From: Escherichia coli
Lineage (GTDB): Bacteria > Pseudomonadota > Gammaproteobacteria > Enterobacterales > Enterobacteriaceae
Assembly (NCBI RefSeq): GCF_003790525.1
Contig: NZ_CP033635.1
DNA: 64,000 nt
Direction: 5' to 3' (one strand)
The notes under the pieces were generated by a model. The model did not search any database, was not told where the DNA came from, and was given only the letters and a program-made list of their open reading frames with translations. The translations under genes and the position numbers were made by a program. The stretch's first letter is position 1, and the number at the start of each line of letters is the position of its first letter. Positions 4,381-42,711 of this stretch are shown here, piece by piece.

Positions 4381-4521
4381 CGATCTGGATCACATTCGTT
4401 AACAAAACGGCTGTAACCGTTTCCATTGCTGTGACTCGATTCACGAAGTCCTGTATTCAGTGCTGACAAAATAGCCGCCAGCAAGCAGTCATTTACTGCA
4501 ATCTCATAACAGGTAGTGAAT

Positions 4522-5562: not shown

Positions 5563-5651
5563 CCGCTTTCAATCTGTGAGTGATTTCACAGTATCTTAAC
5601 AATGTGATAGCTATGATTGCACCGTTTTAACGTTGTAACCCGTATGTAACA

Positions 5652-5669
5652 GTGAATAATCACTTTCAC
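5652..5669. promoter_or_regulatory. Possible GalR/GalS-type operator in the galS-mglB intergenic region
   Basis: Imperfect palindrome GTGAATAATCACTTTCAC (GTGAA...TTCAC arms) about 170 bp upstream of mglB. Confidence 0.25.
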
Positions 5670-25363: not shown

Positions 25364-25588
25364 CTATGCGACTGCCGCTTCTACTTCGACGGGCACAATA
25401 ACACTGGCGTGATTGCCTTTTGGCCCCTGGTGGACATCAAACTGAACGGATTGTCCAGCTTTTAGCGTTCTGTAACCATCCATCTGAATGGTGGAATAAT
25501 GAGCGAAAATATCTTCGCCGCCGCCTTCAGGGCAGATGAAACCAAACCCTTTGGCATTGTTGAACCACTTAACAGTACCCTTTTCCAT
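25364..25588 (-). CDS. cspD: Stationary-phase cold-shock-domain protein
   Basis: MEKGTVKWFNNAKGFGFI... CSD; start at MEKGTV rather than the upstream ATG. Confidence 0.9.
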   Translation of the reverse strand: MEKGTVKWFNNAKGFGFICPEGGGEDIFAHYSTIQMDGYRTLKAGQSVQFDVHQGPKGNHASVIVPVEVEAAVA

Positions 25589-25945
25589 GCTTCGACATCC
25601 TTCGCAAATCTTATACAAGTAAGATGGAATAAACCGGGGTCAGAGAGGGGGCTGTTCAAAACCTCGCCAACTCTAGAAATACAATTTAGAGAATTAGGGC
25701 GAGCCGTCAAGCATTTGACAGGGGACAGGGGGCAGGTATGAATCAAAAATTTGAAGCAGTTAACGCTATTGACAGGAATGTGACAGATGTCGCTGATGCC
25801 AACGATAGATGATAGTTATTTATCATCTAGTGTTCGCGGGTGTTCGTGGTAGTGTTTTGTGTGCATTCATCGCTATGATTATAAAGGAAAATTTTGTTTT
25901 ACTTGTTCGCTCTTGTTCGTCACGGTTTGCCCTTGTACGATGCAC

Positions 25946-25992: not shown

Positions 25993-27231
25993 ATGAGCAG
26001 CGCAATTCATAGACTTAGCGACACTCTTTTACGAAAATTAAGCGGATCACCAACCACAAAAAACGCCTTTTTTAATGACGGTGGCAATCTTAGCGTAAGA
26101 CATTCCACCAGCGGCCTGTTAACCTGGTATTTCACTTACAGGGCCGGAACTGGCAGGCAGGTATCACCGGAACGCCTGAGACTGGGCAACTATCCCGATC
26201 TGAGCCTGAAAGCAGCCAGGGAAAAAGCGGCACAGTGTCGCGCCTGGCTGGCGGAGGGGAAAAATCCACGCCATGAGCTTAATCACACAGTGCAGGAAGC
26301 GTTAGCCCCCGTGACGGTTAAGGACGCGCTCACTTACTGGCTTGAGTCGTATGCGAAGGAAAAGCGCACTGACCACGAATCACTGAAAAGCCGTATCAAT
26401 AAGCACATAATCAGCCAGATTGGTGCTATGCCGCTGGATAAATGCGAGCTACGCCACTGGCTGGCCTGTTTTGACCAGCTTGCTAAGCGTAATCCGGTAT
26501 CAGCCGGCTTTTTGTTGCAGGTATGCAAACAGGCGCTTAAGTACTGCCGTAAACGTCGCTACGCCGTCAGTAACGTTCTTGATGATATGGTCGTAGGTGA
26601 TGTGGGAAAAAAAGCAGAAATAAGCGAGCGAGTGCTAACAAACAAGGAGCTTGGCGAGCTACTCCGCGCACTGGATGAAAAAATTTTCCCGCCGTACTAC
26701 AGCGCTTTAATTCGCCTTCTGATTGTCTTCGGATGCCGTACCACTGAGCTAAGACGCTCCGAGGTTCGGGAATGGGATTTTAAAGAAATGCTCTGGACTG
26801 TGCCGAAAGAACACAGCAAAACGAAGGTAGCAATATTCAGGCCAATACCGGAAGCGATCTTGCCGTTCGTCATGAAGCTGGTGGAGCAGAACAGGCACAC
26901 GGGCTTATTGCTTGGAGAACTGAAAGGGCAATCATCCGTAGCAGAGTACGGAAGAACGGCACACAGACGCATTAATCAAGCCCCCTGGTCGTTGCACGAC
27001 ATCCGGCACACATTTACAACCATGCTGAACGATTTAGGCGTGGATCCGCATATTGTCGAACAGCTTACTGCCCACCAGATGCCAGGAATGCAACGCGTCT
27101 ATAACCACTCCCGTTATCTCGATGCAAAGCGTGACGCTCTTAATCTATGGGTAGACCGTCTCGAGCTTCTCCAGAACAATGATGAAAAAATCGTTGTTAT
27201 GACCCCGCGAATTTACCCCCAAAATTCTTGA
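25993..27231 (+). CDS. int: Tyrosine integrase (P4-type)
   Basis: 412 aa; C-terminal catalytic region (...HDIRHTFTTML...YNHSRYLD) adjacent to the att repeat. Confidence 0.85.
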   Translation: MSSAIHRLSDTLLRKLSGSPTTKNAFFNDGGNLSVRHSTSGLLTWYFTYRAGTGRQVSPERLRLGNYPDLSLKAAREKAAQCRAWLAEGKNPRHELNHTVQEALAPVTVKDALTYWLESYAKEKRTDHESLKSRINKHIISQIGAMPLDKCELRHWLACFDQLAKRNPVSAGFLLQVCKQALKYCRKRRYAVSNVLDDMVVGDVGKKAEISERVLTNKELGELLRALDEKIFPPYYSALIRLLIVFGCRTTELRRSEVREWDFKEMLWTVPKEHSKTKVAIFRPIPEAILPFVMKLVEQNRHTGLLLGELKGQSSVAEYGRTAHRRINQAPWSLHDIRHTFTTMLNDLGVDPHIVEQLTAHQMPGMQRVYNHSRYLDAKRDALNLWVDRLELLQNNDEKIVVMTPRIYPQNS

Positions 27232-27650
27232 CAAATTACGGCTGTTTTTTCTTTAAGAGATTACAGCCGTGAATAGATCTTAGAATATCGGGGAATATCT
27301 GCAAATATCTTCTCTTTATATGTGTCAACTATCGAAAAAAATTGAAATGTCTTCTTCTGAGTTCTTATTCTCTGTTTCTTGATTGTTCCAACATCTGATG
27401 GTTTATCTATTTGTTTTTAATGAGGTAATTCAGGTGACATGCCAAATGACGACATTTTTTGTTGCGTCGCTTAAAAACTCGTGACACGATTTTAAACACT
27501 AACGAGCTTCTACGAACCTTAGCGAACAAAGCCTTTAGCATGGTTGTGTTTTTAATTTAAGAGGTGAAAAAGAATCTAAGTAATATCCGATCTCATATAT
27601 CTACAGCTAAGAGAAAAGTTTATATACGTAATTTTTATGTAGGTTTTTGT

Positions 27651-27860
27651 ATGCGTGAAATAAATGAAGATCGCGTAATCCGTGAGGATGAATGTCGTAA
27701 GTTAACTGGAGTGTGTCGCACTACACGCTACGAACTGGAGAAAAAAGGGAGCTTTCCGTCTCGCCGTAATCTTGGTGGGCGTTCTGTAGGTTGGCTGCTG
27801 TCCGAGGTTATGGAATGGGTTAAAAGCCGGGATCGCATTAATTCAGGCAAGGCAGCGTAA
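27651..27860 (+). CDS. alpA: AlpA-family phage transcriptional regulator (excisionase-like HTH)
   Basis: ~69 aa from MREINEDRV...; layout resembles AlpA/Vis-family proteins; position right after int. Confidence 0.65.
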   Translation: MREINEDRVIREDECRKLTGVCRTTRYELEKKGSFPSRRNLGGRSVGWLLSEVMEWVKSRDRINSGKAA

Positions 27861-27998
27861 AGGGGAGTATATGACACATAAAACAAAGGCGACCGGGGGC
27901 GGTCGCCAATGGGAAAACACTAAACATAAGCCCGAACATCATAGCGATTTGCTGGCTGGTGGGCAATGTGTCCAGTGTGGTGGCTTGCTGGTGGATTG

Positions 27999-28199
27999 TC
28001 AGCCAGGTGGGCGGTTTTTGTTTGCTTTTAAGCGCCGAGGGTATTTCTCGACAAAAGGATCAAGGGCGAACTTATCAGGAACTTTAAGATTTTCAGTGCG
28101 GGTTAATGCCTTATTTATTTCCCTGCGGGTTTTCTCACGCTGGCGCATGATAATTGATAATGCTTTATTTTGTAGTTCCTGGTTATTCATAATTATCAC
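27999..28199 (-). CDS. Hypothetical small basic protein
   Basis: 66 aa ORF directly downstream of the RHH gene on the same strand; may be co-transcribed. Confidence 0.35.
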   Translation of the reverse strand: MIIMNNQELQNKALSIIMRQREKTRREINKALTRTENLKVPDKFALDPFVEKYPRRLKANKNRPPG

Positions 28200-28247
28200 C
28201 TTTAAAACAATGCGCCGCAGTACCTCACACCACGGCGCTGATAGTGA

Positions 28248-28427
28248 TTATTCTGATTCTTTGGCCTTGCGGCGCTGGCGGTATTCAACTTCTCGCTTTA
28301 ATGCTGCTGTTACAAACTGCCCTGTACTTTCACCAGGCATTTTTACCGCCTCAACATTGTTCATAACTTCATGCGGAACCCTTGCCGCAACTGTTTGTGA
28401 TTTTGCGTTTACTGCTTTTGTCGCCAT
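28248..28427 (-). CDS. Ribbon-helix-helix (CopG/Arc-like) DNA-binding protein, 59 aa
   Basis: Hand-translated (below the 60-aa track cutoff): MATKAVNAKSQTVAARVPHEVMNNVEAVKMPGESTGQFVTAALKREVEYRQRRKAKESE; palindromic operators lie just upstream. Confidence 0.5.
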   Translation of the reverse strand: MATKAVNAKSQTVAARVPHEVMNNVEAVKMPGESTGQFVTAALKREVEYRQRRKAKESE

Positions 28428-28477
28428 GTTGTGTACCCCTTACAAAAAACAAATGCAGTATGCAGGAAAAAAAATAA

Positions 28478-28530
28478 GTGTTCAACACTTGGCGTGTTTA
28501 ACACCTAGGCTTAAATTGGTGTTCAACACC
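28478..28530. promoter_or_regulatory. Three palindromic operator-like sites
   Basis: GTGTTCAACAC (28478-28488), GTGTTTAACAC (28495-28505), GGTGTTCAACACC (28518-28530) upstream of the RHH gene. Confidence 0.45.
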
Positions 28531-29571
28531 TTGTTGATGAAAGGTGCAGAAACGACGAAACCCCGCACTGTTGGAGCAGTAACGGGGCTTCTAACCACCA
28601 ACGATAGAAAGCGTATCGAGGTAGCTATGTTAAATCATACCACACACCCGCAAGGGCGGGACCCGCACAACCTGAATAAATACATCTGGCGTTTTATCGC
28701 CCTGAGCACAGCACAACCACGCGTTATTACCATCGGGGCCACCAGCGAACAGGAAGCCCGCCAGCAATCCCCGACTGGCTGGGTGATGGTATTGGCCTCC
28801 AGATTTCATCATCGCTGTTTGTTTTTTGTCTGTCTCTCCTCGGGGTATGGGGTTGTGCCGTTCCAGCGTATGCGGGGCCGTTCACTGATGAAGCGCTCAA
28901 GCGGGAAATTATCGGATGGCGCGGGGGGCCGTACCCGTCGTTCCCGCCTCCGCTGGCGTACCACGCTGGCTTCGGTAATTTCCCCTGATTCGTTTATTTT
29001 CATAAAGAGTTACCTCCGTGCTCATCTGCTCTGGCGTTTTCTGTTTCTGATGAAGACTTACAGCGGTAGCGGCGTATCTTATCTTAAGATTTGGTTTAAT
29101 TTCTCGTGTCTGGCTTTAATGACGGCGCGTAATAATATCTGTCGCTGCTTTGTGTTTACGTCCAGAACTGTGGGGGATAATATGGATTTGTTCATGGTGC
29201 TCACCTGTAATGCATTGCGTCGTGATGCCTCATATCACGGCGGCGGTTATCGTTTTGTTCGGATTCGTCCCCTGATGAAATCCTCAAGCGGAAAATGTTC
29301 AGGGCGAGGTAATTCAGGAGGGACAGGGTTATTACTCATGCGCTCACGTTCCCTTGCGGCGCGTGCAGCATTCAGCTTTTGCAGGAGCACATCAAACGGC
29401 ACCCCCTTATCATTCATGGTCCCCCCTGTATATCCGTTGTTAACTGATGGTTACAGGTGCATTTTTCGCACAAACTATTTAATCAACACATCCGACCACA
29501 TTATCAGAGAGCCGGAATATACAGGGGCAATAATCCCGCATTTGCTGGCCTACGCACAGCTTACCGCTGAT

Positions 29572-29859
29572 ATGGCACTGAATGAGGCCAAAGCCATCCT
29601 GATTGCTGATTGTGAATATGGGGTTATGCGTGATGATCGTTTTAATGCCCTGAAACAGGAATTTGATGGCACACCGGAAGATACAGATATTGCGCTGTTA
29701 TGTGTTGCTGACATGGTAAAAGCTGCATGTTTTTTACTGGAAACCGCCGAACATTCAGGAACGGGTAGCGATATTCTCAATATTGCGTCGGACTATGCTG
29801 AATATGTGGCAGAGGCGCGTTACAGAAGAAAATTCCAGGAGGTGGTTAGCCATGAATAA
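29572..29859 (+). CDS. Hypothetical protein (start uncertain; TTG at 29542 is an alternative)
   Basis: Only protein-like portion of the long stop-free frame; ends with an AGGAGG RBS for the next gene. Confidence 0.4.
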   Translation: MALNEAKAILIADCEYGVMRDDRFNALKQEFDGTPEDTDIALLCVADMVKAACFLLETAEHSGTGSDILNIASDYAEYVAEARYRRKFQEVVSHE

Positions 29860-30025
29860 TCATGAAGCGCACTTACCTGTAGTGCTTAATGTGCCATCTG
29901 ATTATACGGGGCGCGTTTTGATATTTCTGGATAAAGGGAAAGTGAAATCGCAATGCCGCCTTAGAAATAATGAGGTTATTGGTTCTCTGGCTTTTTTTCT
30001 GAAGCCTGTATTCGCGCCGGAATAA
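29851..30025 (+). CDS. Hypothetical small protein (57 aa)
   Basis: ATG overlaps the upstream stop (CATGAATAATC) with an AGGAGG SD 8 nt upstream. Confidence 0.4.
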
Positions 30026-30055
30026 AGCCGGAATCACTGACAGGAAAATAAAACC

Positions 30056-30355
30056 ATGAAAAAGAAAAATTCTGGCTTTACTGCCAGCGGCCTCGCTCGG
30101 CCTGAAATCCGTCCCGGCTATATTTTCCGTGATAACTACGGCGGTACGGTAACGATTAAAGGCGTGGCAGAACGGCGCATCACCTACCGCCATGAAGGTT
30201 ACGAATATGATTGCGTGATGCCTGTTTATCAGTTTGTGCGTGATTTTTCTCTTGTGCAGGCCGTACCGCGTAACGTGCCCACCAGCAGGGAGAAAGCACG
30301 CGCCAATATTCAGAAGATGAAAACCATGATTAACGGATTCAGGGGTAAAAAATGA
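30056..30355 (+). CDS. Hypothetical protein
   Basis: 99 aa ORF; 4-bp overlap with the primase start. Confidence 0.5.
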   Translation: MKKKNSGFTASGLARPEIRPGYIFRDNYGGTVTIKGVAERRITYRHEGYEYDCVMPVYQFVRDFSLVQAVPRNVPTSREKARANIQKMKTMINGFRGKK

Positions 30356-32100
30356 AACTGGCACCGAACGTAAAACTGCAGTCACGCGGCATAAAACACA
30401 AAGGAACTGAAGTCATTATTTTTGCGGGTAGTGATGCCTGGGCACACGCGAAACAATGGCAGGAACATGACGCGCGTATGGCCGGAGATAATGAGCCTCC
30501 TGTGTGGCTTGGGGAGCAGCAGTTATCCGAACTGGATAAGCTGCAAATTGTGCCGGAAGGCAGAAAATCCGTGCGTATATTCAGGGCCGGATATCTTGCG
30601 CCAGTAATGATAAAGGCGATTGGTCAGAAGCTGGCGGCGGCTGGCGTACAGGACGCAAATTTTTACCCCGAAGGAATGCACGGTCAGAAGTGTGAAAACT
30701 GGCGGCGTTATCTGAATGCTGAGCGTGAAAATATTGCTGCAGGGCTTACCATGCCGGAGCAGAAAAATACGCAACTGGCACAAATGGCAGACAGTGAGCG
30801 CGCACAGATGCTTGCTGGTCGATTTGATGGCGTTTGTGTGCATCCGGAAAGTGAAATCGTTCACGTATGGCGCGGCGGGGTATGGTGTCCGGTCAGCACA
30901 ATGGAACTGAGCCGCGAAATGGTGGCGATCTATTCAGAGCACAGGGCCACTTTCAGCAAGCGCGTAATCAGTAACGCCGTGGAAGCGTTAAAAGTTATTG
31001 CCGAACCAATGGGCGAGCCGTCCGGCGATTTGCTGCCGTTCGCCAATGGTGCGCTTGACCTGAAAACGGGGGAATTTTCCCCGCACACGCCGGAGAACTG
31101 GATCACCACGCACAACGGCATTGAGTACACGCCACCAGCACCTGGGGAGAACATCCGCGATAACGCGCCAAACTTTCATAAATGGCTTGAGCACGCAGCC
31201 GGAAAAGACCCGCGCAAGATGATGCGTATATGTGCCGCGCTGTACATGATTATGGCGAACCGGTACGACTGGCAGATGTTTATTGAGGCCACCGGAGACG
31301 GCGGGAGCGGTAAAAGTACATTCACACACATAGCCAGCCTTCTGGCAGGGAAACAGAACACGGTAAGTGCTGAGATGACATCGCTTGATGATGCTGGTGG
31401 GCGTGCGCAGGTTGTCGGGAGTCGTCTTATCGTCCTGGCAGACCAGCCGAAATATACAGGCGAAGGAACGGGCATCAAGAAAATCACGGGCGGTGACCCC
31501 GTGGAAATTAACCCGAAATACGAAAAGCGTTTCACGGCTGTAATCAGGGCGGTGGTGCTGGCGACCAACAATAACCCGATGATATTCACCGAACGGGCCG
31601 GAGGTGTGGCACGTCGTCGCGTGATTTTTCGTTTCGACAATATCGTCAGTGAGGCTGAAAAAGACAGGGAGCTACCGGAAAGGATTGCGGCTGAAATCCC
31701 CGTCATTATCCGCCGATTACTGGCGAACTTTGCAGACCCTGAAAAGGCGCGGGCTTTACTACTGGAACAGCGTGACGGTGATGAAGCACTGGCGATAAAG
31801 CAGCAAACGGATCCGGTTATTGAGTTTTGCCAGTTCCTGAATTTTCTGGAGGAAGCACGTGGCCTGATGATGGGTGGCGGTGGCGATTCCGTGAAGTACA
31901 CGACCAGAAACAGCCTGTACCGCGTCTATCTGGCGTTTATGGCATACGCAGGCAGGAGCAAACCGCTGAACGTGGCTGAGTTCAGCAAGGCCATGAAGCC
32001 AGCGGCGAAAGTTTACGGACATGAATATATAACGCGCAGGATTAAAGGGGTTACGCAAACCAACGTGACAACAACAGACGACTGCGACGCGTTTTTATAG
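30352..32100 (+). CDS. P4-family phage/plasmid primase-helicase-like replication protein
   Basis: 582 aa; C-terminal NTPase with Walker A GDGGSGKST and LADQP Walker B-like motif typical of the P4 alpha / D5 family. Confidence 0.8.
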   Translation: MKLAPNVKLQSRGIKHKGTEVIIFAGSDAWAHAKQWQEHDARMAGDNEPPVWLGEQQLSELDKLQIVPEGRKSVRIFRAGYLAPVMIKAIGQKLAAAGVQDANFYPEGMHGQKCENWRRYLNAERENIAAGLTMPEQKNTQLAQMADSERAQMLAGRFDGVCVHPESEIVHVWRGGVWCPVSTMELSREMVAIYSEHRATFSKRVISNAVEALKVIAEPMGEPSGDLLPFANGALDLKTGEFSPHTPENWITTHNGIEYTPPAPGENIRDNAPNFHKWLEHAAGKDPRKMMRICAALYMIMANRYDWQMFIEATGDGGSGKSTFTHIASLLAGKQNTVSAEMTSLDDAGGRAQVVGSRLIVLADQPKYTGEGTGIKKITGGDPVEINPKYEKRFTAVIRAVVLATNNNPMIFTERAGGVARRRVIFRFDNIVSEAEKDRELPERIAAEIPVIIRRLLANFADPEKARALLLEQRDGDEALAIKQQTDPVIEFCQFLNFLEEARGLMMGGGGDSVKYTTRNSLYRVYLAFMAYAGRSKPLNVAEFSKAMKPAAKVYGHEYITRRIKGVTQTNVTTTDDCDAFL

Positions 32101-32109
32101 TTTTAGACA

Positions 32110-32345
32110 AAAGCCCTCTACCCCTTCTACCTTAAGAAAATAATTACATATATTTCATGTTGATAGATTGGGTAGATGGCAGGTAGAAGGTACTTAAAAG
32201 CCCTCTACACCCTCTACCATAATTCAGGGCATTTGTGAGGGGGTGGTAGATGGCAGGTAGAGGGCCAAAAAAGCCCTCTACCCCGCTGAAATCCGCGCCA
32301 TTACTGACCTGAAAGATGATTGTGTAGAGAGGTAGAGGAGGTGCA
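32110..32345. repeat. Iteron cluster (putative island replication origin)
   Basis: About 12 copies of CCCTCTACC / GGTAGAGGG in both orientations (e.g. 32112-32131, 32171-32190, 32199-32218, 32241-32264, 32272-32285, 32328-32342) immediately downstream of the primase gene. Confidence 0.65.
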
Positions 32346-32386
32346 CCACAACACAAAACTTTTTAAACACGAGGGTAAAAATAAAA

Positions 32387-32644
32387 ATGCACACATCAGA
32401 AAAATTTAACAATCAGAAGAAATCACATAACCGCGCCATTGACCTTACAGAGCACTGGCTGAGGGTGGCGATAAAAATCATCGACCGCAACGCGGGAGAA
32501 GGATACGCGAAAGCGCATCCCGAACTGATTAGCGCATTCATGACCACAGCGGCGGCAAACTTTGCCACGCTGACACAACGGGAGATTGCCGAAGCGGAAC
32601 AGGTAACAACCATCAACGTTAAAACCAGTGAGGTGGAATCATGA
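32387..32644 (+). CDS. Hypothetical protein
   Basis: 85 aa ORF; stop overlaps the next start. Confidence 0.45.
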   Translation: MHTSEKFNNQKKSHNRAIDLTEHWLRVAIKIIDRNAGEGYAKAHPELISAFMTTAAANFATLTQREIAEAEQVTTINVKTSEVES

Positions 32645-33051
32645 CAGCACAGATAGCGGCTTACGGGCGGCTGGTGGCTGACCCGCAGTTAAAGACCACC
32701 AGCAAGGGGACACAAATGGCGATGGCGAGTATGGCGGTCCCCCTTCCGTGCAGCCAGGCAGATGACGGAACGGCGACGATGTGGTTATCTGTGCTGGCGT
32801 TTGGCAGACAGGCCGAAGCACTGGCAAAGCACCGCAAGGGTGAACTCCTGAGCGTGGCGGGTAACATGCAGGTCAGCCAGTGGACCGGACAGAACGGGGA
32901 AACGCGGCAGGGCTGGCAGGTTATCGCAGACAGCGTAATCAGTGCGCGGACAGTGCGACCGGGCGGAAAAACACGCAAAACCACAGGCGCACAGGGGAAT
33001 AAGCCACCAGCGGGAGGCGATGGCCCCTACGGAGATGATATACCCTTCTGA
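32641..33051 (+). CDS. Single-stranded-DNA-binding (OB-fold, SSB-like) protein
   Basis: 136 aa; layout resembles the SSB N-terminal OB fold (GRLVADPQL...W..VLAFGRQAE...QW..QNGE.R); C-terminal G/P-rich tail. Confidence 0.55.
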   Translation: MTAQIAAYGRLVADPQLKTTSKGTQMAMASMAVPLPCSQADDGTATMWLSVLAFGRQAEALAKHRKGELLSVAGNMQVSQWTGQNGETRQGWQVIADSVISARTVRPGGKTRKTTGAQGNKPPAGGDGPYGDDIPF

Positions 33052-33068
33052 ATCAGGCGGGGAGCAAC

Positions 33069-33389
33069 ATGAACAACAGCACACCGAAGAACCGGACAAT
33101 AAGCGACGCGACAGCAGAAGAACTCGAGAGCAGGGGACTGTGGCGACGGGCTGCCAGAAGGTGGCAGGATGTGATGATTACTCTTCAGGAAGACAGGCAC
33201 AGAGAACTTGCGGCAATGAGAGCAAGGGAATGTATCAGGAAGGCAAAGCGCCCGATACCTGAAAACCGTTATGATGTTCACGCAGTCAGAAGGGCCGCAG
33301 ACAGGACAATACAACAGATGGGGCTACCGTCGCTTACTGATGAAATATGGCGTGATTACCCTGATAACGTAAATGATGACGGTTATTAA
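33069..33389 (+). CDS. Hypothetical protein
   Basis: 106 aa charged ORF. Confidence 0.45.
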   Translation: MNNSTPKNRTISDATAEELESRGLWRRAARRWQDVMITLQEDRHRELAAMRARECIRKAKRPIPENRYDVHAVRRAADRTIQQMGLPSLTDEIWRDYPDNVNDDGY

Positions 33390-33468
33390 CAGGCGGGGAA
33401 ACACGACACCAGCGGGAGCGACACGGGGTAGCAGATGCCGCTGGTGGAACAGCACAAAGGGGGAGAAC

Positions 33469-34053
33469 ATGACAAAGCTGACCATTAACCGAAAACCAAA
33501 AGGCATATACGGCACACCGCAGAAAAAGACGCAGGAGGCTGAACAGCCGGATAAAACCACACCAGCGCAAAAGCAGAGCCGCGAGCAGAAAACACAACAG
33601 AAGACGGCAGCAAAACGCAAATCAGAAAAGAGCCGGAAAAAAAATATCAGACGCGTTGAACGCCTTGCCGCGCTCTGGCCTGAACTTTTCAGCCAGGAAT
33701 CGCCCAGACCGCTTAAGGTTGGCATATTTGATGACCTGATGGAGGATATTACTGCGAGAGGTATTTCATTAGGTCAGGGAGCGCTTCGCGCAACGCTGGC
33801 GTATTATGTCAGTTCAGTGCGATATTACCGTTCCCTGATGGCTGGTGGCGTGCGTTACGACCTGAAAGGCCATCCGTGCGGGGAGGTGACACAGGAGCAC
33901 CAGTTGAACGCGGGGAAGCGACTGGATGAGATGAAGAAAAAACAGCAGGAGCGCAGAAACATGAAGGCAGAAAATAAGCATAACGGTAAGCCACCAGCAG
34001 GGCATAATATTATTCTGAAAAATGCCAGTTCCTCGGGCGTACGGAAAGCATAA
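33469..34053 (+). CDS. ProQ/FinO-domain RNA-binding protein
   Basis: Lys-rich N-terminus followed by LAALWPELFSQESPRPLKVGIFDDLMEDI...LRATLAYYVSSVRYYRSLMAGGVRYDLKGHPCGEV, close to the ProQ N-terminal FinO domain; start at ATG 33469 with GGGGGAG RBS. Confidence 0.65.
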   Translation: MTKLTINRKPKGIYGTPQKKTQEAEQPDKTTPAQKQSREQKTQQKTAAKRKSEKSRKKNIRRVERLAALWPELFSQESPRPLKVGIFDDLMEDITARGISLGQGALRATLAYYVSSVRYYRSLMAGGVRYDLKGHPCGEVTQEHQLNAGKRLDEMKKKQQERRNMKAENKHNGKPPAGHNIILKNASSSGVRKA

Positions 34054-34075
34054 AACCCTGACCACATGAAGAGAC

Positions 34076-34105
34076 GAAGCCGGAGTAGTCCGGCTTTATT
34101 TTTTA
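34076..34105 (+). terminator. Rho-independent terminator
   Basis: AAGCCGGAGTAGTCCGGCTTT followed by ATTTTTTAT. Confidence 0.55.
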
Positions 34106-34130
34106 TGGGTCCTTTCCGGCATGTGGACCC

Positions 34131-34300
34131 GTTACGGGGCGGCGACCTCGCGCAAAACAACTCCTTATGAAATTTTTACGGGAAATTCAGATCCGTTCTT
34201 CTTTTTTGTAAGTCATTGTGTATATTGAATTTTATTTGTTCTGAGAAAGGATCTGATAAGGCTTCGTTTCGCCTGAAAAGGCAGTTTTAAGATCCTTTCT
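34131..34300 (+). other. Lambda-type cos site (cosN plus cosB-like region)
   Basis: GTTACGGGGCGGCGACCTCGCG matches the lambda cohesive-end region (12-nt GGGCGGCGACCT at 34137-34148); downstream TTATGAAATTTTTACGGG and CCGTTCTTCTTTTTT resemble lambda cosB elements. Confidence 0.65.
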
Positions 34301-34340
34301 TAAAAAAACGGGTCATTTTCTTGCTGGAGGGGATGCTGGT

Positions 34341-34925
34341 GTGAGGGTTAACAAGAAAAAGCTGGCTGAGATTTTTGATGTTGATGTGCGGACTATATCC
34401 ACCTGGCAAAATCAGGGGCTGCCGCTGATATCAGGCGGCGGGAAAGGGAATGAAGCGATTTTTGATACGGGAAAAGCGATTGAGTGGTTCGCTCAGCGTG
34501 AGGCCGACATTGAAAATGAAAAACTTCGTAAGGAAGTCGACGATATGCGCGTGGCTGCTGAGTCGGATCTGCAGCCCGGTACGATTGATTACGAACGCTA
34601 CCGTCTCACAAAAGCACAGGCAGATGCGCAGGAACTTAAAAACGAGCGCGATCGCGGTGACGTGATTGATACAGAGTTTTGCATGTACGCGCTTTCAAAA
34701 CTGGCGAGACAGATTTCATCAATCATGGACAGCCTCCCGCTTACTATGCAAAGGAGCTTCCCACAGATGACCCCCGCCATGCTGGATGGCCTGAAAAAAG
34801 AAGTTGTCAGAGCCTGTAACGCATGCACAAAACTTGATGAAAACATCCCGCGAATGCTGTCCGATTATCTGATGGAAACTACCGGAAATGTGCCTGATAA
34901 GTTTCAGCCGGATAAAGACAAGTAA
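34341..34925 (+). CDS. Nu1-like small terminase subunit homologue (candidate packaging-redirection factor)
   Basis: MRVNKKKLAEIFDVDVRTISTWQNQGLPLISGGGKGNEAIFD...ADIENEKLRKEV...LQPGTIDYERYRLTKAQADAQELKN closely parallels lambda Nu1; GTG start. Confidence 0.75.
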   Translation: MRVNKKKLAEIFDVDVRTISTWQNQGLPLISGGGKGNEAIFDTGKAIEWFAQREADIENEKLRKEVDDMRVAAESDLQPGTIDYERYRLTKAQADAQELKNERDRGDVIDTEFCMYALSKLARQISSIMDSLPLTMQRSFPQMTPAMLDGLKKEVVRACNACTKLDENIPRMLSDYLMETTGNVPDKFQPDKDK

Positions 34926-35086
34926 CGTAGTGCACAATGACCGAAGCCAGTTTACTGACTGGCTTTCAGCGTTGCGCTGGTGGGCGTTATGCGTCAGTGA
35001 TGAACAAAAAACAATCGAAATCGACACCGAAAAATAAAACATCAAGTCATATCAATATATTGCATTGGTGGTGATAACGAATAAAA

Positions 35087-35467
35087 ATGCAAAAACTAGC
35101 CTTTTTCCGCGATGCTCCCGCCCCGTGGCAGGGCACCCCACAAGGAGGACCCGCCATCACTATGGAGGACATGACCATGACCATGACCGAGACCGAAGCG
35201 ATCGGGATAATCCGCAGTATTACCGGAATCAGCCAGCAGGCTGGCGAACAGGAGGCCACGCAGCCGGACAGCGTGATAGCCGAAAATTACGCGTGTGTTG
35301 TTGCTGAGGTGATGCGCCGTGATGGTATTGAGCTTAACGGCGTGGATATGCGCAACATACGAACCAGAGTCCTTGAGTTGCTGGCATACCGTCGCCGTTC
35401 TCAACAACGGAGGGAGAGCGCGAAAAACACTTATCAGTGGAAGAAGCCGGAACGGTTGCGGCGGTAG
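35087..35467 (+). CDS. Hypothetical protein (true start may be the internal MEDMTM...)
   Basis: 126 aa ORF; last protein-like ORF before the right att. Confidence 0.4.
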   Translation: MQKLAFFRDAPAPWQGTPQGGPAITMEDMTMTMTETEAIGIIRSITGISQQAGEQEATQPDSVIAENYACVVAEVMRRDGIELNGVDMRNIRTRVLELLAYRRRSQQRRESAKNTYQWKKPERLRR

Positions 35468-36293
35468 ATTCCTGATATTCAGGAAAACCACGAATCCGGG
35501 GGTTTTACTGGCGCGGTGTACACGGTGGAACGCATAGCGTTACCTGACTTATTGCATTGTAAAAAGTTAGAAAGGCACGGCCTGTAAGATGGGATGTTGT
35601 GAGTAGTTTAAAGCTACCCGCAAATTCTTTCGTTGTGCTGGCACAGGCGGTTAAACCGTCGGTAACTGGATAATCCCCACTGGGGGAAAAGCTGGCTACA
35701 TCCCTCACATCTGAGGACTGATAATGCGACATTGCGCTGGCTGGTGGGTGAGTTGCAGATTTGCAACTCGACCATGAAACTACGGAAACTACCCGTAGTT
35801 TGGGTAGTAAGAGTAACACCCAGATTTTGGGGCTTACTCGCGATACCCAAATAAAGGGTATCGGTGGAAGAAATATCGTTTCTCATATGTAAGTACCGAG
35901 GGCGGAATTCCGCCTTCGGTTACTTATTGTGCTCATTCACAGGGAGGGGCGGGTCAAATCTCTGTACCCTGACGTCTTCAGGACTGCCCGCCCCATCGAT
36001 TTTTTATACCCGCGAAAAATGAAAAACGCTTCACGCTGGTGGGCCTGATGCCGATATGGGGAGCCGCATACCGGAGAATATCCACCAGCACGGCAACAGC
36101 AGAATAGCCCCGACACAGAAAAACCACGAATATGGGGTTTTTGTTATGGCATGGTCATGATGACCGCCCCTGCTCTGAATGGTGGAAATCACCACGCAGA
36201 TCATCCACCAGCTTCATGACGGATAGCCGGAAAATGATAATGATTAAAGCGTGTTGATCTTTGTTCGCGGTTGTTCGATATTGTTCGTGAAGC

Positions 36294-36317
36294 GGTGTAG
36301 TTAATGGTGTAGTTAAT
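36294..36317. repeat. Island attR direct repeat
   Basis: GGTGTAGTTAATGGTGTAGTTAAT, 23/24 identical to attL. Confidence 0.65.
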
Positions 36318-36488
36318 ATCACTGTTTTTGACGGGCTTGTTATTTGCAACATAATGAAAAATAAAGACTAATTAACTAAATGATATAAGATAGTTATCTA
36401 TCATGTGGAGTAGATTGGTCAGGCAAATAAGCTCTTGTCAGCGGCAGGGCGTTCTGCCGATAACCGTAACCGAAGATGATAACTGACA

Positions 36489-36809
36489 ATGGGTAAAACG
36501 AACGACTGGCTGGACTTTGATCAACTGGCGGAAGAAAAAGTTCGCGACGCGCTAAAACCGCCATCTATGTATAAAGTGATATTAGTCAATGATGATTACA
36601 CTCCGATGGAGTTTGTTATTGACGTGTTACAAAAATTCTTTTCTTATGATGTAGAACGTGCAACGCAATTGATGCTCGCTGTTCACTACCAGGGGAAGGC
36701 CATTTGCGGAGTCTTTACCGCCGAGGTTGCAGAAACCAAAGTGGCGATGGTGAACAAGTACGCGAGGGAGAATGAGCATCCATTGCTGTGTACGCTAGAA
36801 AAAGCCTGA
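36489..36809 (+). CDS. clpS: ClpA adaptor protein ClpS
   Basis: 106 aa; [21 protein letters not shown] motif. Confidence 0.95.
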
Positions 36810-39399: not shown

Positions 39400-39487
39400 T
39401 GGCGGTGAGGGGGGGATTCGAACCCCCGATACGTTGCCGTATACACACTTTCCAGGCGTGCTCCTTCAGCCACTCGGACACCTCACC
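39400..39487 (-). tRNA. serW: tRNA-Ser (anticodon GGA)
   Basis: Reverse complement reads GGTGAGGTGTCCGAGTGG...CCTGGAAAGTG...GGTTCGAATCCCCCCCTCACCGCCA; long variable arm. Confidence 0.9.
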
Positions 39488-39675
39488 AAATTGTTTTGCT
39501 GCCAAACCTCATGGGTGGCAACGGGGCGCTACTATAGGGAGTTGGAGTAAAACGGTCAAGAAGAATTTTAATGATAATTATTGTTTGCTCATACTGTAAA
39601 CAAGTTGTGCAGTATATCTACATCGAGACAAGTTATGGACTTATACTTCCAAAGTACTTCATACATATCACAAAA

Positions 39676-39703
39676 TAAAAAGGTCGGTTAAACCGACCTT
39701 TTA
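39676..39703 (-). terminator. infA terminator
   Basis: AAAAGGTCGGTTAAACCGACCTTTT hairpin flanked by A/T runs. Confidence 0.5.
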
Positions 39704-39740
39704 CTCGTTCTTTCTCTTCGCCCATCAGGCGGTAAAACAA

Positions 39741-39962
<222 letters not shown>

Positions 39963-40243
39963 ATCCTCTGGGGTATCACTACCGTAATTTGAACCGGCAA
40001 GATAATGCCGAAGTTCTGTAAATAAGTAAAGATTTGCGCGCTAAATCGCAACAAACAGGTTCGGCACATTACTCCGAAAACACACGGCTAAGCCGCACCA
40101 AAAGCGCAACGTATAAGGGAGCGGTGAGATAAACGATGGGCGTTACCTGACGCGAAAAATTCCTTATCGGCAGCGGGGTAATGAGCGTAACCAACTCTGC
40201 GACCGCAATTATAACACTCTGGGGAGAAATGTGCCGAAAACAT

Positions 40244-40948
40244 TCATTCTTGTGGTGAAAACAAGCACCGTGGTACCCAGAAATTATTCGGCAATCGTCC
40301 GAGGCGCATTTGATTGAGATAATTTAGATAATCCCGGCGGGGAATTTCGCAGGCACCAAGCGAAGCTGTGTGATCGTTAAGGACCTGGCAGTCGATAAGC
40401 TTACCGCCATGACCAATAAATTCCTCACAGAATACCAGAAGCGCCGTTTTAGACGCATTTTCCATCCGGCTGAACATGGACTCGCCACAAAATAGCGTTC
40501 CCTGGGCCACGCCGTACATACCGCCGACAAGCTCATCTTCACGCCAGACTTCAATAGAGTGGGCATGACCGAGTTCGTGAAGGCGATGGTAGGCTTCGAC
40601 CACGCCACGCGTGATCCAGGTTCCTTCTTCGCGATCGCTGGCACAGCCTTCAATGACCTGACCAAAAGCGTAATTCATCGTGACTCGATAGGGCGAGCGT
40701 TTATGAAATCGCTTCATACTACGGCTGATATGCAGTGATTCTGGCCATAGCACCGCGCGGGGATCGGGCGACCACCAGAGGATGGGGTCGCCTGGAGAAA
40801 ACCACGGAAAAATACCACGCTGGTAAGCCATTAACAGGCGCGCAGGGCTAAGATCGCCCCCCAGTGCCAGCAGGCCGTTAGGCTCACGTAATGCGCCTTC
40901 CGGGGAAGGGAAGGCTATTGAATGGCGAGAAAGCTGAACCAGGCGCAT
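40244..40948 (-). CDS. aat: Leucyl/phenylalanyl-tRNA--protein transferase
   Basis: 234 aa; synteny with infA and cydC. Confidence 0.9.
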
Positions 40949-40989
40949 GACCGCAAAACTCCACGCAAGTCGGATCGTTCAATAATAGC

Positions 40990-42711
40990 TTACAAACCCT
41001 GCTTAAACTGGTAATAACGCCCCTGTCGGGCAAGCAGTTCTGCGTGAGTACCTTGCTCAATAATTTGCCCGTTGTCCATCACTATTATTTGCTGGAAACG
41101 AGAGAGCCCGCGAAGTCGATGGGTGACCATTAACACCGTTTTCTCACGCATCATTTCTGCAAGTAATTCAAGGATCTGACTTTCAGTTGTGGCATCTAAG
41201 CCTTCGGTAGGTTCATCCAGCAATACCAGTGGCGCATCATGTAACAGCGCACGGGCGATAGCCAGACGGCGCAGTTCACCACCGGAGAGCTGGCGTCCGC
41301 CTTCACCCAACCAACTGTTGAGACCTGCATCCTCGAGCAGCTTCTCCAGACCAACGCGACGCAAGATCTCCGCCAGAGCCTCATCACTACTATCAGGCGA
41401 GGCGAGTAACAGATTATCACGCAGCGTGGCGCTAAACAGATGCACTCGCTGTGGCACAACGCTGATGGTCTGTCGTAGAGTCGCTTCATTCAGGCTGGCT
41501 ATGGGGCTATCGTTAAGCAAAATCTCGCCCTGTTGCGGGTCCCATGCGCGGGTCAGCAGTTGTAACAATGTTGATTTGCCGCATCCGGTTCGCCCGAGAA
41601 TCGCTATATGTTCTCCGGCGTTTACCTGAAGAGAAATCCCTTTAAGTGCCTGTTGGGATTGCTCTGGATAAGTGAACTGAACATCCCGTAATGTCAGCGA
41701 AACACGATCGGCAACACGAGTTTGGGTATCAGGGAAGGTGACTTCCGGTTTTTGATCCGTTAAGTCAGTGATCCGTACGGCAGAGGCAATGACTTGCCCC
41801 AGATGCTGAAATGCACCCGTTACTGGTGCCAGTGCTTCAAACGCGGCTAACGCGCAGAAGACAAACAGGGCAATTAACGCGCCGGGTTGAGCATTGCCGC
41901 CAACGCCGCCAGACGCCATCCACAGCATCAGGATCACCGCTAACGCGCCAATGAGCAGCATTATCGCTTGCGACAATGCGGTGAGTTCAGATTGACGACG
42001 TTGCGATTCCAGCCACTGAATTTCGGTATTCTCTAACTGCGTGCGATAACGATCGCTGGCACCAAAAATGGTCAGCTCAGCTTGCCCTTGCAGCCAGGCC
42101 GTCAGTTGTTGGCGATACTGCCCGCGAAGATGAGTCAGATTTTGCCCGGTGCTTTTTCCCGCACGATAAAACAGTGGTGGCATAAGGAAAAGCGTCAGTA
42201 ACATAATGCCGCCCAGCGTAAAGGCGAGGGTGAAATCAAGGAAACTTAACCCGATTGTCACCACCATAATCACCACAAAAGCGCCCACCAGCGGCGAGAT
42301 AACGCGCAGGTAAAGATGATCGAGCGTATCAACATCCGCCACCACGCGGTTGAGCAATTCGCCCTGACGATAGCGCGCCAGTCCGGCAGGGGAGAGGGGC
42401 AGCAATTTGCTGAAGGTATAAATGCGCAGATGCTGCAACACGCGGAAAGTCGCGTCGTGACTTACCAGGCGTTCAAAATAGCGCCCGGCAGTACGGGTGA
42501 TTGCTGCGCCACGCACGCCCGCAGCGGGTAGCATATAGTTGAAGCTGTACAGTCCGGCAACCCCCGCAACCGCTGAGGCGGAGAGGAACCAGCCCGAAAG
42601 TGTCAACAGACCGATGCTGGCGAGCAGCGTGACAATTGCCAGCACAATACCAAGACTTAACATCCATTTATGACGTTTATACAGTGCCAGATAGGGTAGC
42701 AAAGCGCGCAT
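40990..42711 (-). CDS. cydC: Cysteine/glutathione ABC exporter subunit CydC
   Basis: 573 aa TMD plus ABC ATPase (GRTGCGKST, LSGGE). Confidence 0.9.
   Translation of the reverse strand: MRALLPYLALYKRHKWMLSLGIVLAIVTLLASIGLLTLSGWFLSASAVAGVAGLYSFNYMLPAAGVRGAAITRTAGRYFERLVSHDATFRVLQHLRIYTFSKLLPLSPAGLARYRQGELLNRVVADVDTLDHLYLRVISPLVGAFVVIMVVTIGLSFLDFTLAFTLGGIMLLTLFLMPPLFYRAGKSTGQNLTHLRGQYRQQLTAWLQGQAELTIFGASDRYRTQLENTEIQWLESQRRQSELTALSQAIMLLIGALAVILMLWMASGGVGGNAQPGALIALFVFCALAAFEALAPVTGAFQHLGQVIASAVRITDLTDQKPEVTFPDTQTRVADRVSLTLRDVQFTYPEQSQQALKGISLQVNAGEHIAILGRTGCGKSTLLQLLTRAWDPQQGEILLNDSPIASLNEATLRQTISVVPQRVHLFSATLRDNLLLASPDSSDEALAEILRRVGLEKLLEDAGLNSWLGEGGRQLSGGELRRLAIARALLHDAPLVLLDEPTEGLDATTESQILELLAEMMREKTVLMVTHRLRGLSRFQQIIVMDNGQIIEQGTHAELLARQGRYYQFKQGL

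Follow-up and report, generated by a model that had tools for sequence, protein, structure and literature searches.

A 662-codon open frame beside alpA in an Escherichia coli phage-inducible island appears to correspond to the eta frame of P4 and runs antisense to small leftward genes

The 64-kb stretch of E. coli DNA analysed here (the window) holds a phage-inducible chromosomal island of about 10.5 kb, with int, alpA, a regulatory zone, primase, SSB, PerC and the small terminase subunit. The region of interest is the second half of the regulatory zone, and its features are collected in Table 1. On the plus strand it is crossed by a single open frame, which the ORF list gives as 662 codons and which a preliminary description of the sequence had already recognized. 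This frame starts 10 nt after the alpA stop, runs antisense to the leftward genes, passes through an operator region, an icd/kil-like domain and a mosaic module, and finally closes at the stop codon of a phrog_2512-like gene. Its translation is rich in Arg, Cys and Ser and is mostly not protein-like, as had been remarked. A Pfam search with all 662 residues gave no match, even at E <= 10, and the same search found neither an Ash (PF10554) nor a Bro-N domain in the long frame. A related island (L013) does match Phage_ASH, over a stretch that also holds a C4 RNA. PGAP calls part of the window frame as a 477-aa 'Icd-like protein'.

Table 1. Features of the alpA-proximal regulatory zone, in window coordinates.
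Feature	Position	Strand	Basis or remark
alpA, AlpA-type HTH regulator	27651-27860	+	PGAP annotation of identical island; ORF and sequence
eta-like read-through frame, 662 codons	27871-29859	+	SD AGGGGAG and ATG directly after alpA
Intrinsic terminator of leftward operon	27888-27907	-	T-run on minus strand only, hence one-directional
63-aa small protein, motif FALDPFV, second gene of leftward operon	27999-28190	-	PGAP CDS; independent family HMM E = 4.9e-20
Second leftward intrinsic-terminator-like hairpin	28212-28238	-	Between RHH gene and 63-aa gene
YlcI/YnfO-family ribbon-helix-helix (RHH) protein, presumed repressor	28248-28427	-	NCBIfam NF041551 59.7 bits (cut-off 30); phrog_949 E = 6.5e-22
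A8 tract inside open frame	28467-28474		Related island with A7 has a stop here
Three operator-like palindromes, GTGTTYAACAC	28478-28529		Overlap two promoter-like sites
icd/kil-like domain	28627-28809	+	Own SD (GAGG) and ATG 28627; NF033153 54.6 bits; phrog_6196 E = 4e-36
m64, 64-aa ORF, FPLERFI	28809-29003	-	GGAGG SD; independent HMM E = 2.3e-3
Rare mosaic module	28810-29487		Replaces 181 bp of the usual junction between icd end and next gene start
m41, pseudogene	29022-29195	-	Homologous to 67-aa member of related island; two in-frame stops
58-nt element	29204-29261		84.5% identical to stretch just upstream of first leftward gene in another island
m56, 56-aa ORF, FPLEDFI	29247-29417	-	G-rich SD; independent HMM E = 1.4e-4
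phrog_2512-family gene, C-terminal ~124 codons	29488-29859	+	Profile positions 31-153 of 154; same frame

Two parts of the long frame resemble known coding sequence. The Icd-like model NF033153 scores 50-55 bits on the window frame, against a cut-off of 25, over profile positions 1-46 of 48; the match to the icd/kil-like domain stops near 28809, and substitutions within this domain fall at third positions. The last eight or so residues of the icd-like protein and its stop are replaced in the window (alignment A6; left junction), and because the stop found in relatives is missing, the frame runs on; in relatives it ends at the icd stop. The phrog_2512-like part has a candidate internal start (ATG 29407), and its stop overlaps the ATG of the next gene (29852-29859, ATGAATAA); an ATGA at 30352 is a further signal of downstream translational coupling. 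Programmed frameshifting at a T6 run near 28823 was rejected, as the run does not fit a slippery heptamer. An alternative frame with protein-like stretches and no start codon had also been proposed. Such a frame does exist, as the plus-strand frame 0 in which the repeats described below read xDExLKR, but with 11 stops in 28809-29487 it is unsupported as coding sequence.

The divergent RHH gene, on the opposite strand, and the three palindromes of the preliminary description are both real. The only exact matches to GTGTTYAACAC in the 64 kb are GTGTTCAACAC at 28478, GTGTTTAACAC at 28494 and GTGTTCAACAC again at 28519; with one mismatch allowed, there are seven matches on the two strands against 1.98 expected, a count reached in none of 100 shuffles. 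The palindromes sit between divergent promoter-like hexamers, beside the YlcI/YnfO RHH gene. The rightward promoter-like site (TTGGCG-17-TAAATT, 28489-28517) matches at 8 of 12 positions and is below the threshold of a standard scan, and relatives carry TTGACG at the -35 position; the leftward promoter-like site is TTGAAC-17-CATACT (28485-28457). Relaxed promoter scans returned only 8/12 sites with weak hexamers. In an island with a different RHH type, the palindromes are different as well. Both of the hairpin and T-run sites behind the leftward genes have their T-run on the minus strand only.

The three direct repeats that had been reported are present (28885, 29047 and 29272), with a spacer of three nucleotides and not the six first described. 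The motif is CTGATGAA-N3-CTCAAGCGG, and in copy 2 it becomes CTGATGAA-GAC-TTACAGCGG; with at most three mismatches it has three matches against 0.21 expected (three were reached in 0/100 shuffles), and neither strand of the window has any further copy. Translated in the minus frame, the repeats read FPLERFI, PLPL*VFI and FPLEDFI. Sequence comparison shows that they are the conserved, C-terminal F-[A/P]-L-E-x-F-[I/L/V] motif of m64, of a decayed middle copy and of m56, which are paralogous to the 63-aa gene that follows the RHH gene. Copy 1 (28885-28904) lies within m64 and copy 3 (29272-29291) within m56, and copy 2 (29047-29066), encoding PLPL*VFI, lies in m41, which aligns without gaps to the 67-aa member of a related island over 55 aa (42% identity, E = 1e-13).

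Members of this small-protein family were defined as leftward ORFs of 55-85 aa with P-x-x-F-[A/P]-L-[E/D]-x-F-[I/L/V] close to the C-terminus that also match, significantly, a family HMM from which the ORF in question had been left out (alignments A4 and A7), and by this F-A-L-E-x-F definition both m56 and m64 belong to it. When a family HMM built without m56 and m64 was used to rank 1865 six-frame segments, the top three were the 63-aa gene, m56 and m64, and the next best segment had E = 1.2. The motif is also found, with different codons, in nine leftward ORFs from five islands. The 75 database homologues, from E. coli, Shigella and E. albertii, are all annotated as 'hypothetical', and in a set of 1.84 billion representative proteins the family forms only 24 clusters (50% identity); comparison of the small proteins with NCBIfam, PHROGs, PADLOC, Pfam and PDB sequences gave no named family. 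Structure prediction for the 63-aa protein (pLDDT 84) gives one long helix and a short one with the motif, an arrangement too simple for fold comparison to be informative. The m56 product is on record as a called protein (P0025), and a variant of m56 with a frameshift has been recorded too. Neither m56 nor m64 yielded a convincing promoter or terminator, so their expression is uncertain.

This reading of the repeats bears directly on an earlier suggestion, that the region is a long structured RNA leader in which the three repeats (CUGAUGAA-N3-CUCAAGCGG) pair with a small RNA of the island, as seqA/seqC pair with the CI RNA in P4 immunity. C4/CI and isrK/seqA RNAs are indeed present in the equivalent zone of P4 and of related islands. 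However, neither C4/CI nor isrK/seqA was detected in the 64-kb window (Rfam, gathering score) or around the island (E <= 1), and the same search found C4 and isrK in P4 and in two related islands, L003 and L013, which served as positive controls; in the window, these Rfam searches yielded only a cspA-like match outside the island and a tRNA. Furthermore, plus-strand RNA from 28810-29490 folds no more strongly than its shuffles (z = -1.13), and a structured cis-regulatory leader was seen neither as an Rfam match nor as an excess of folding. The confinement of the repeat to its three copies, its full explanation as a protein motif that other islands conserve with different codons, and the way that copy 2 diverges exactly as a pseudogene would, also argue against an RNA target, and we consider the leader hypothesis extremely improbable. 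The motif of the small leftward genes remains our reading of the repeats.

The rare module that carries m64, m41 and m56 has, as its junctions show, replaced the 3' end of icd/kil and the 5' end of the next gene, and the gene after icd has lost about its first 30 codons. The proposal of a frameshifted pseudogene was therefore partly right: it holds for the decayed middle small gene, for the lost icd-like stop and for the missing codons of the next gene, and fails for the rest of the region. The module occurs in 9 of 5426 E. coli genomes, at an identity of at least 99.7%, and in two different island backbones. Its 58-nt element holds a hairpin, CGTGAT-N7-ATCACG, and a phage collection contained no DNA match to the module. 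Insertion of a mobile element, or an inversion, between the arms of a 15-nt inverted repeat (28785-28799 and 29584-29598) was rejected, as the right arm falls within coding sequence of the phrog_2512-like gene that is collinear.

Could the module be inert recombination debris, with m56 and m64 unexpressed and its open frame left over from a donor island? Its rarity and near-identity everywhere would fit, as would the dead middle gene, the lack of any promoter or terminator found for the module genes, and two frameshifted copies. In one IMG/VR copy a single nucleotide is inserted at 29319, and another copy (L004) has a frameshift in icd; together with the m56 variant on record, these frame-breaking copies may be sequencing errors or may mean that the frame is dispensable. 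Moreover, selection may have acted on the open frame of the module in a donor island, and this island would then simply have inherited it. However, the ORFs of m56 and m64 are still intact and retain their SDs and the motif. The module also shares its phase with the gene on either side (in simulations, the probability of finding no stop in the module was 0.009), and it has spread to two island backbones. On balance, debris seems unlikely to us.

The evidence that the frame as a whole is kept open comes from related islands. Most of 80 loci keep the icd frame open upstream of that gene, over 130-412 codons antisense to real leftward genes, and in at least six alpA types the first ATG of the frame lies 8-57 nt after the alpA stop. 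The register of the leftward genes is in phase with icd in 119 of 129 instances. Over 24 leftward gene clusters (at most 85% nucleotide identity), there is not one stop in the icd register, against 94 and 93 in the other two antisense registers; synonymous permutation within genes (3000 runs) gave a mean of 21.1 stops and a minimum of 10, a test that overstates independence, as the clusters share ancestry. The pattern can be traced to individual codons. In a subset of 12 genes, drawn from five islands, a codon that precedes CAN ends in T in 0 of 60 cases, and one that precedes TAN ends in T or C in 0 of 14. Simulation of the segment upstream of icd in the window itself (27871-28626) put the probability of no stops below 5e-5. 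Counting against this reading, the frame over the leftward genes stops 20-150 nt short of the icd ATG in about five loci, and in about 12 loci the open stretch upstream of icd spans only 45 codons, with no leftward genes recognized.

A long frame opposite real genes may of course be a shadow ORF, which has no function and arises by accident from the amino acids and codons that the leftward genes use. Third codon positions on the two strands coincide in this antisense register, stops need only Tyr, or His/Gln, after particular codon endings, and for single short genes the probability of finding no stop is 0.2-0.7. What this account does not explain is the pooled result, with no stops in 24 diverged clusters where 21 were expected and where no permutation of the 3000 fell below 10. 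Nor do ordinary genes behave in this way, as thirty of them from the window show no avoidance (480 stops observed against 448 permuted). In addition, the open frame extends over intergenic stretches, again in the phase of icd, and the start after alpA is conserved. The sequence data already disfavour an accidental frame, and we regard it as very unlikely.

If the frame is selected, is its product? A real multi-domain protein whose sequence is important, either Icd-like or a 'Bro network' fusion, would agree with PGAP, which calls 'Icd-like proteins' of 477 to 595 aa here, and with the treatment of P4 eta as a Bro-network gene in the relevant part of one study of such islands (PMC10111431). The icd-like and phrog_2512-like segments are, indeed, true coding sequence in this frame. 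Against this, the 662 residues drew no Pfam match, and the middle 226 aa, compared with 5.8 billion proteins, matched only copies from the same module, which means that the plus frame has no diverged relatives there. Replacements in the plus frame are radical (mean BLOSUM62 -0.99) and those in the minus frame are conservative (+0.04), and it is the opposite-strand products that are conserved and fall into recognized families. The Arg/Cys/Ser-rich composition is, furthermore, that expected of the antisense of Lys/Arg/Glu-rich genes. We think it most improbable that the 662-codon frame encodes such a protein. Rather, these comparisons show that related islands keep the frame free of stops antisense to real leftward genes while leaving its amino-acid sequence free to drift. 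The preliminary description had looked to homologous islands for a conserved, intact ORF of normal codon bias across this region; they do keep an open frame, and not a conserved or protein-like sequence.

By analogy with P4, we think that the frame is probably translated, unconstrained in sequence, and protects read-through driven by alpA from Rho. This anti-termination role is based on homology to P4 and on the statistics of stop avoidance; as with eta/kil, being translated would matter and the encoded product would not. In such a scheme, a helper phage would switch alpA on and transcription would carry on rightward, ribosomes loading at the SD after alpA would trail the polymerase over 2 kb and keep Rho away from the RNA, and read-through would reach the replication genes, which are translationally coupled, regardless of whether the RHH protein holds the internal promoter shut. 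The mosaic module may be tolerated in mid-operon because its frame was kept open and in phase on both sides. More tentatively, this family of islands might carry alpA-coupled frames of 200-660 codons that are translated, unconstrained in sequence and selected while lying antisense to the island's own repressor operon, such that ribosome-protected read-through bypasses the repressor-controlled promoter and also collides with, and silences, the convergent repressor genes.

If true, this would be a protein-repressor counterpart of the RNA immunity of P4, achieved through large-scale antisense dual use of DNA, and if confirmed it would indicate how induction by AlpA overcomes the repressor that the island itself encodes in Gram-negative PICIs. 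It would extend the eta/kil principle, that an ORF can matter through its translation and not its product, to islands with a protein repressor instead of the CI RNA. The statistics also give an unusually clean signal of selection for an open frame that, for hundreds of codons opposite functional genes, is not constrained in sequence. Finally, our reading accounts for a recurrent annotation artefact of these islands, in which PGAP calls 'Icd-like' proteins of 477 to 595 aa and truncated 'ash family' pseudogenes while the real small leftward genes go unannotated.

The comparison with P4, which the preliminary description had invoked, proved apt at the level of eta and kil. In P4 these are nested genes, and translation of the ORF, not its product, reportedly prevents Rho-dependent termination of transcription from an upstream late promoter. 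The P4 eta ORF ends in Kil and overlaps ORF88, an alpA homologue. NF033153 scores 73-76 bits on P4 Kil/Eta, and the homology to P4 Kil is based on this shared NCBIfam model; hhalign of P4 Kil against a five-sequence Icd alignment gave a weak match (E = 0.018), and tblastn with Icd on the phage collection matched one phage, with P4 itself unmatched at that sensitivity. By its start 10 nt after alpA and the Kil/Icd-like domain that it contains, the window frame appears to correspond to P4 eta. In both cases, a much longer ORF encloses the Kil/Icd-like domain in frame and begins beside an alpA homologue; the P4 ORF also spans an internal promoter, for which the window has a weak candidate in the rightward promoter-like site. 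However, the window has no CI (C4) RNA or seqA (isrK) site and has instead a protein repressor module, the RHH gene with its palindromes. Its frame is antisense to functional leftward genes, is 662 codons long against about 198 in P4 and, with the Kil/Icd stop lost, crosses the mosaic module into the next gene.

A second relative is the immI region of phage P1 (c4 RNA, icd, ant), where a small Icd-family protein is the first translated gene and is translationally coupled to what lies downstream. The island resembles it in having a small Icd-family protein first in a regulated operon. P1, unlike the window, is controlled by the C4 antisense RNA, and we know of no long upstream open frame or antisense genes in immI.

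In position, between int-alpA and the replication genes, the zone studied here matches the 'Bro zone' of Gram-negative PICIs, as outlined in the relevant part of Tommasini, Mageeney and Williams (2023; PMC10111431). It shares with that zone its dynamism, its mosaicism and its link to P4 eta. In that part of the paper, eta is described as coupled to the alpA homologue, its translation preventing termination and thereby allowing read-through from the late promoter, and the zone as one of unidirectional genes for Bro-network proteins, with immunity RNAs. By contrast, Pfam finds no Bro-N or Ash domain in the window, and its zone consists largely of opposite-strand genes, a feature that goes unmentioned in the portion of the paper on which we draw (PMC10111431).

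Finally, the frame has much in common with long antisense 'shadow' ORFs, which likewise lie open opposite real genes, have translations unlike protein and are miscalled by pipelines. It differs from them in that its openness departs significantly from the expectation of synonymous shuffling, and openness of this type is conserved across diverged gene families and crosses intergenic DNA. Furthermore, the window frame has a conserved start and shares its phase with a real gene.

The segment at 28440-29570 forms the distal half of a read-through frame of the eta type. It bears a rare mosaic module made up of three small-protein genes in antisense orientation, of which one is dead. The preliminary description had observed an implausible open frame of 662 codons, and the plus strand is indeed uninterrupted from 27871 to 29859; what it observed was confirmed, and its interpretation is supported in part. 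The frame starts 10 nt past the alpA stop, preceded by AGGGGAG, and across at least six different alpA types its first ATG lies 8-57 nt past that stop. A first reading as a shadow ORF was dropped, as the same frame is open in every related island fetched. In those islands it terminates at the icd stop, and in most of 80 IMG/VR loci, collected by icd homology alone, the icd frame extends upstream of the icd ATG, without a stop, for 130-412 codons. In about a dozen loci just 45 codons upstream of icd are open, and leftward genes were not recognized there. A few islands have a frame that ends 20-150 nt before reaching the icd ATG; an A7/A8 tract difference (window 28467-28474) accounts for one of them. 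The icd gene is frameshifted in one island copy, and one IMG/VR copy has a 1-nt insertion at 29319. In the window the tract is A8, inside the open frame and immediately left of the first palindrome, whereas island locus L087 (about 4340-4351) has A7; the resulting TAA closes the frame 150 nt before icd. Either a slippage-prone switch or an artefact of sequencing could explain this difference. PGAP and RefSeq name the open frame variously as 'Icd-like proteins' of 477 and 595 aa or as truncated 'ash family' pseudogenes, and leave leftward small genes, such as that at L002 2810-2998, without annotation.

The comparison of homologous islands that had been proposed gives a divided answer: the frame stays open, but its sequence is not conserved as that of an ordinary ORF. 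Judged by mean BLOSUM62 score, homologues differ by conservative replacements in the minus frame (+0.04) and by radical ones in the plus frame (-0.99); the leftward genes are therefore real proteins, and the plus frame is kept open with its sequence unconstrained. The RHH gene and the leftward small-protein genes are nested in the long frame, and 119 of 129 instances lie in the antisense register in phase with icd, where third codon positions of both strands coincide. Over 24 leftward-gene clusters (defined at ≤ 85% nucleotide identity) this register contains no stop, against 94 and 93 in the other two antisense registers; synonymous-codon shuffling within each gene gave a mean of 21.1 and a minimum of 10 stops in 3000 trials. 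Since the clusters share descent, the P-value from permutation should not be read as a strict probability; the contrast between this register and the other two, and with control genes, is unaffected by that descent. Among 12 of these genes, drawn from five islands, no codon preceding CAN ends in T (0/60), and none preceding TAN in T or C (0/14). Avoidance is absent from 30 ordinary genes of the window (480 stops, 448 expected), and in simulations for the window the probability of meeting no stop is 0.009 across the module and < 5e-5 across 27871-28626.

The icd-like gene of related islands, 63-68 aa long, ends at a stop of its own, and the following gene begins 11 nt before that stop. Differences between copies in the icd part fall at third codon positions of the plus frame, so icd is real coding sequence to about 28782. 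Window positions 28801-29556 stand where a related island has 181 bp. Of 5426 complete E. coli genomes, only 9 contain the core of this module, each time at ≥ 99.7% identity. Two different island backbones carry it, with icd genes that are 10-15% apart. This pattern marks it as a recently spread mosaic.

Coordinates of genes, frame segments and annotated loci
Feature	Sequence	Coordinates	Strand	Remarks
63-aa gene	window	27999-28190	-	behind RHH gene; motif FALDPFV
Icd-like segment of long frame	window	28555-28809	+	phrog_6196 profile; NF033153 at 54.6 bits
m64 ORF	window	28809-29003	-	Shine-Dalgarno; repeat reads FPLERFI
m41 ORF	window	29079-29204	-	Shine-Dalgarno; repeat reads PLPL*VFI
m56 ORF	window	29247-29417	-	Shine-Dalgarno; repeat reads FPLEDFI
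phrog_2512-like segment of long frame	window	29488-29853	+	profile positions 31-153 of 154 only
PGAP-called open frame	L001 (copy of window island)	4227-5660		window 28426-29859
PGAP-called open frame	L005	1886-3673
PGAP-called open frame	L003	3224-3742
PGAP-called open frame	L013	2416-2967

Three direct repeats had been described at 28885, 29047 and 29272; they are present (three matches in the window, 0.21 expected; 0/100 shuffles reach three), but with a spacer of N3 rather than N6. One minus-strand frame of the module holds three ORFs, m64, m41 and m56, and the repeats are a protein motif encoded on that strand. The leftward ORFs of related islands carry versions of it in different codons (FALEDFV, FALEDFL, FALDNFL, PPLEVFL, FALEKFL and FALEQFL). 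Profile search recovered 75 homologues of this F-A-L-E-x-F family, 41-131 aa long and all 'hypothetical'. They come from E. coli, Shigella or E. albertii and lack any Pfam domain; the family forms only 24 clusters among 1.84 billion representative proteins. Searches of NCBIfam, PHROGs, PADLOC and the PDB gave no named family for these small proteins. With an HMM from which m56 and m64 had been left out, the top three of 1865 six-frame window segments were the 63-aa gene (4.9e-20), m56 (1.4e-4) and m64 (2.3e-3), the fourth having E = 1.2. The third ORF, m41, gives a gap-free alignment with a family member of 67 aa (42% identity, E = 1e-13), yet carries two in-frame stops, one replacing the motif's invariant Glu, and is thus a pseudogene. 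The suggestion of a frameshifted pseudogene holds only for parts of the region, such as m41; as a whole the region is more than a pseudogene. A frameshifted m56 variant is on record, and no convincing promoter or terminator was found for m56 or m64. Tandem arrays of two to four paralogues in one register (L013 1503-2492; L090 3627-4064) are precedents for the three-gene array. A 58-nt element directly upstream of the first leftward gene (window 29204-29261) is 84.5% identical to L013 2501-2558, the flanking genes being far more diverged; it contains the hairpin CGTGAT-N7-ATCACG and may be an operator or 5'-UTR element. The predicted family fold is a long N-terminal helix with a short helix made by the motif (pLDDT 84). 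In the family alignment (A7) this motif helix, F-A-L-E-x-F-L-K, loosely resembles the conserved C-terminal peptide of FtsZ, IPAFLRK, a lead only. The 63-aa gene, m64 and m56 neighbour a cell-division-inhibitor homologue.

The three palindromes reported earlier are exactly as claimed (GTGTTCAACAC at 28478, GTGTTTAACAC at 28494 and GTGTTCAACAC at 28519), with no other exact match in 64 kb; one mismatch allowed, there are seven matches against 1.98 expected (0/100 shuffles reach seven). They overlap two divergent promoter-like sites, each an 8/12 match, beside the RHH gene, and relatives have a better -35 hexamer, TTGACG. At L031 3538-3675, equivalent to window 28478-28529, a different RHH subtype is accompanied by other palindromes, GTGCAAGTCACC and GGTGACTTGCAC, which suggests that operator sequence and repressor type co-vary.

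The element, of ~10.5 kb, is a phage-inducible chromosomal island of the Gram-negative type. It lies in an E. coli chromosome at about 25993-36500, bounded by cspD/yljB and clpS with no adjoining tRNA gene, and an identical sequence is present in strain TUM1886. There the PGAP order is cspD, yljB, int, AlpA-type regulator, leftward hypothetical, leftward YlcI/YnfO, 477-aa 'Icd-like protein', frameshifted small ORF, DUF4222, primase, SSB, PerC, ProQ/FinO, small terminase subunit and clpS. To the right, within 39403-41021, a tRNA gene (39403-39487, minus strand) with a second tyrosine recombinase gene alongside suggests a further integrated element. The cspD leader region (25500-25693, minus strand) gave a weak, sub-threshold Rfam match to the cspA thermoregulator (22.9 bits; gathering score 78).

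In the quiescent island, RHH protein bound at the palindromes would repress both a rightward internal promoter and its own. Once a helper phage switched on alpA, rightward transcription would carry on past that gene, and ribosomes starting at 27871 would trail the polymerase for 2 kb, meeting no stop and keeping Rho off the RNA. The stop statistics and homology support such ribosome-shielded read-through after alpA induction. The T-runs of the two leftward terminator hairpins lie on the minus strand only, so these hairpins should not halt the rightward transcript. The long frame ends at 29859 within ATGAATAA, which is also the start of the next gene (29852-30051, flagged 'frameshifted' by PGAP), and DUF4222 and the primase gene are linked by ATGA; translation could thus be handed to the replication genes. 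A 680-bp insertion with opposite-strand genes amid an operon would normally be expected to be polar, but the module keeps the frame open and in phase with both neighbours, icd to its left and the phrog_2512-like gene to its right, and in our reading persists for that reason.

The long frame corresponds to the eta/kil arrangement of P4 (X51522), where an ORF of 214 codons comes after the alpA homologue ORF88 and overlaps it. Its C-terminal part is the 65-aa Kil (MATTLTPSHPEF...VEVSRA), which scores 76 bits with the NCBIfam Icd-like model that also matches the window domain. According to the passages of PMC10111431 summarising Forti et al. (1999), Kil is a truncated form of Eta, and translating Eta blocks termination, with the result that transcription from the late promoter passes through eta and the genes downstream. 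A structured leader with repeated RNA target sites, as in the P4 immunity region, had been offered as one possibility for this region. P4 and two related islands do have C4 (CI) and isrK (seqA) RNAs in the equivalent zone, but the window has neither, and its repeats are a protein motif; the leader reading does not hold. The RHH gene and three palindromes stand in place of P4's CI RNA. In one related island, L013, Pfam Phage_ASH matches the frame over a stretch that also contains a C4 RNA, whereas the window frame has no Pfam match. P4 eta/kil already represents this kind of element, and we found no description of the present variant in the parts of the literature that we examined; it differs from eta/kil in the real genes nested antisense within the frame and in stop avoidance across hundreds of codons.
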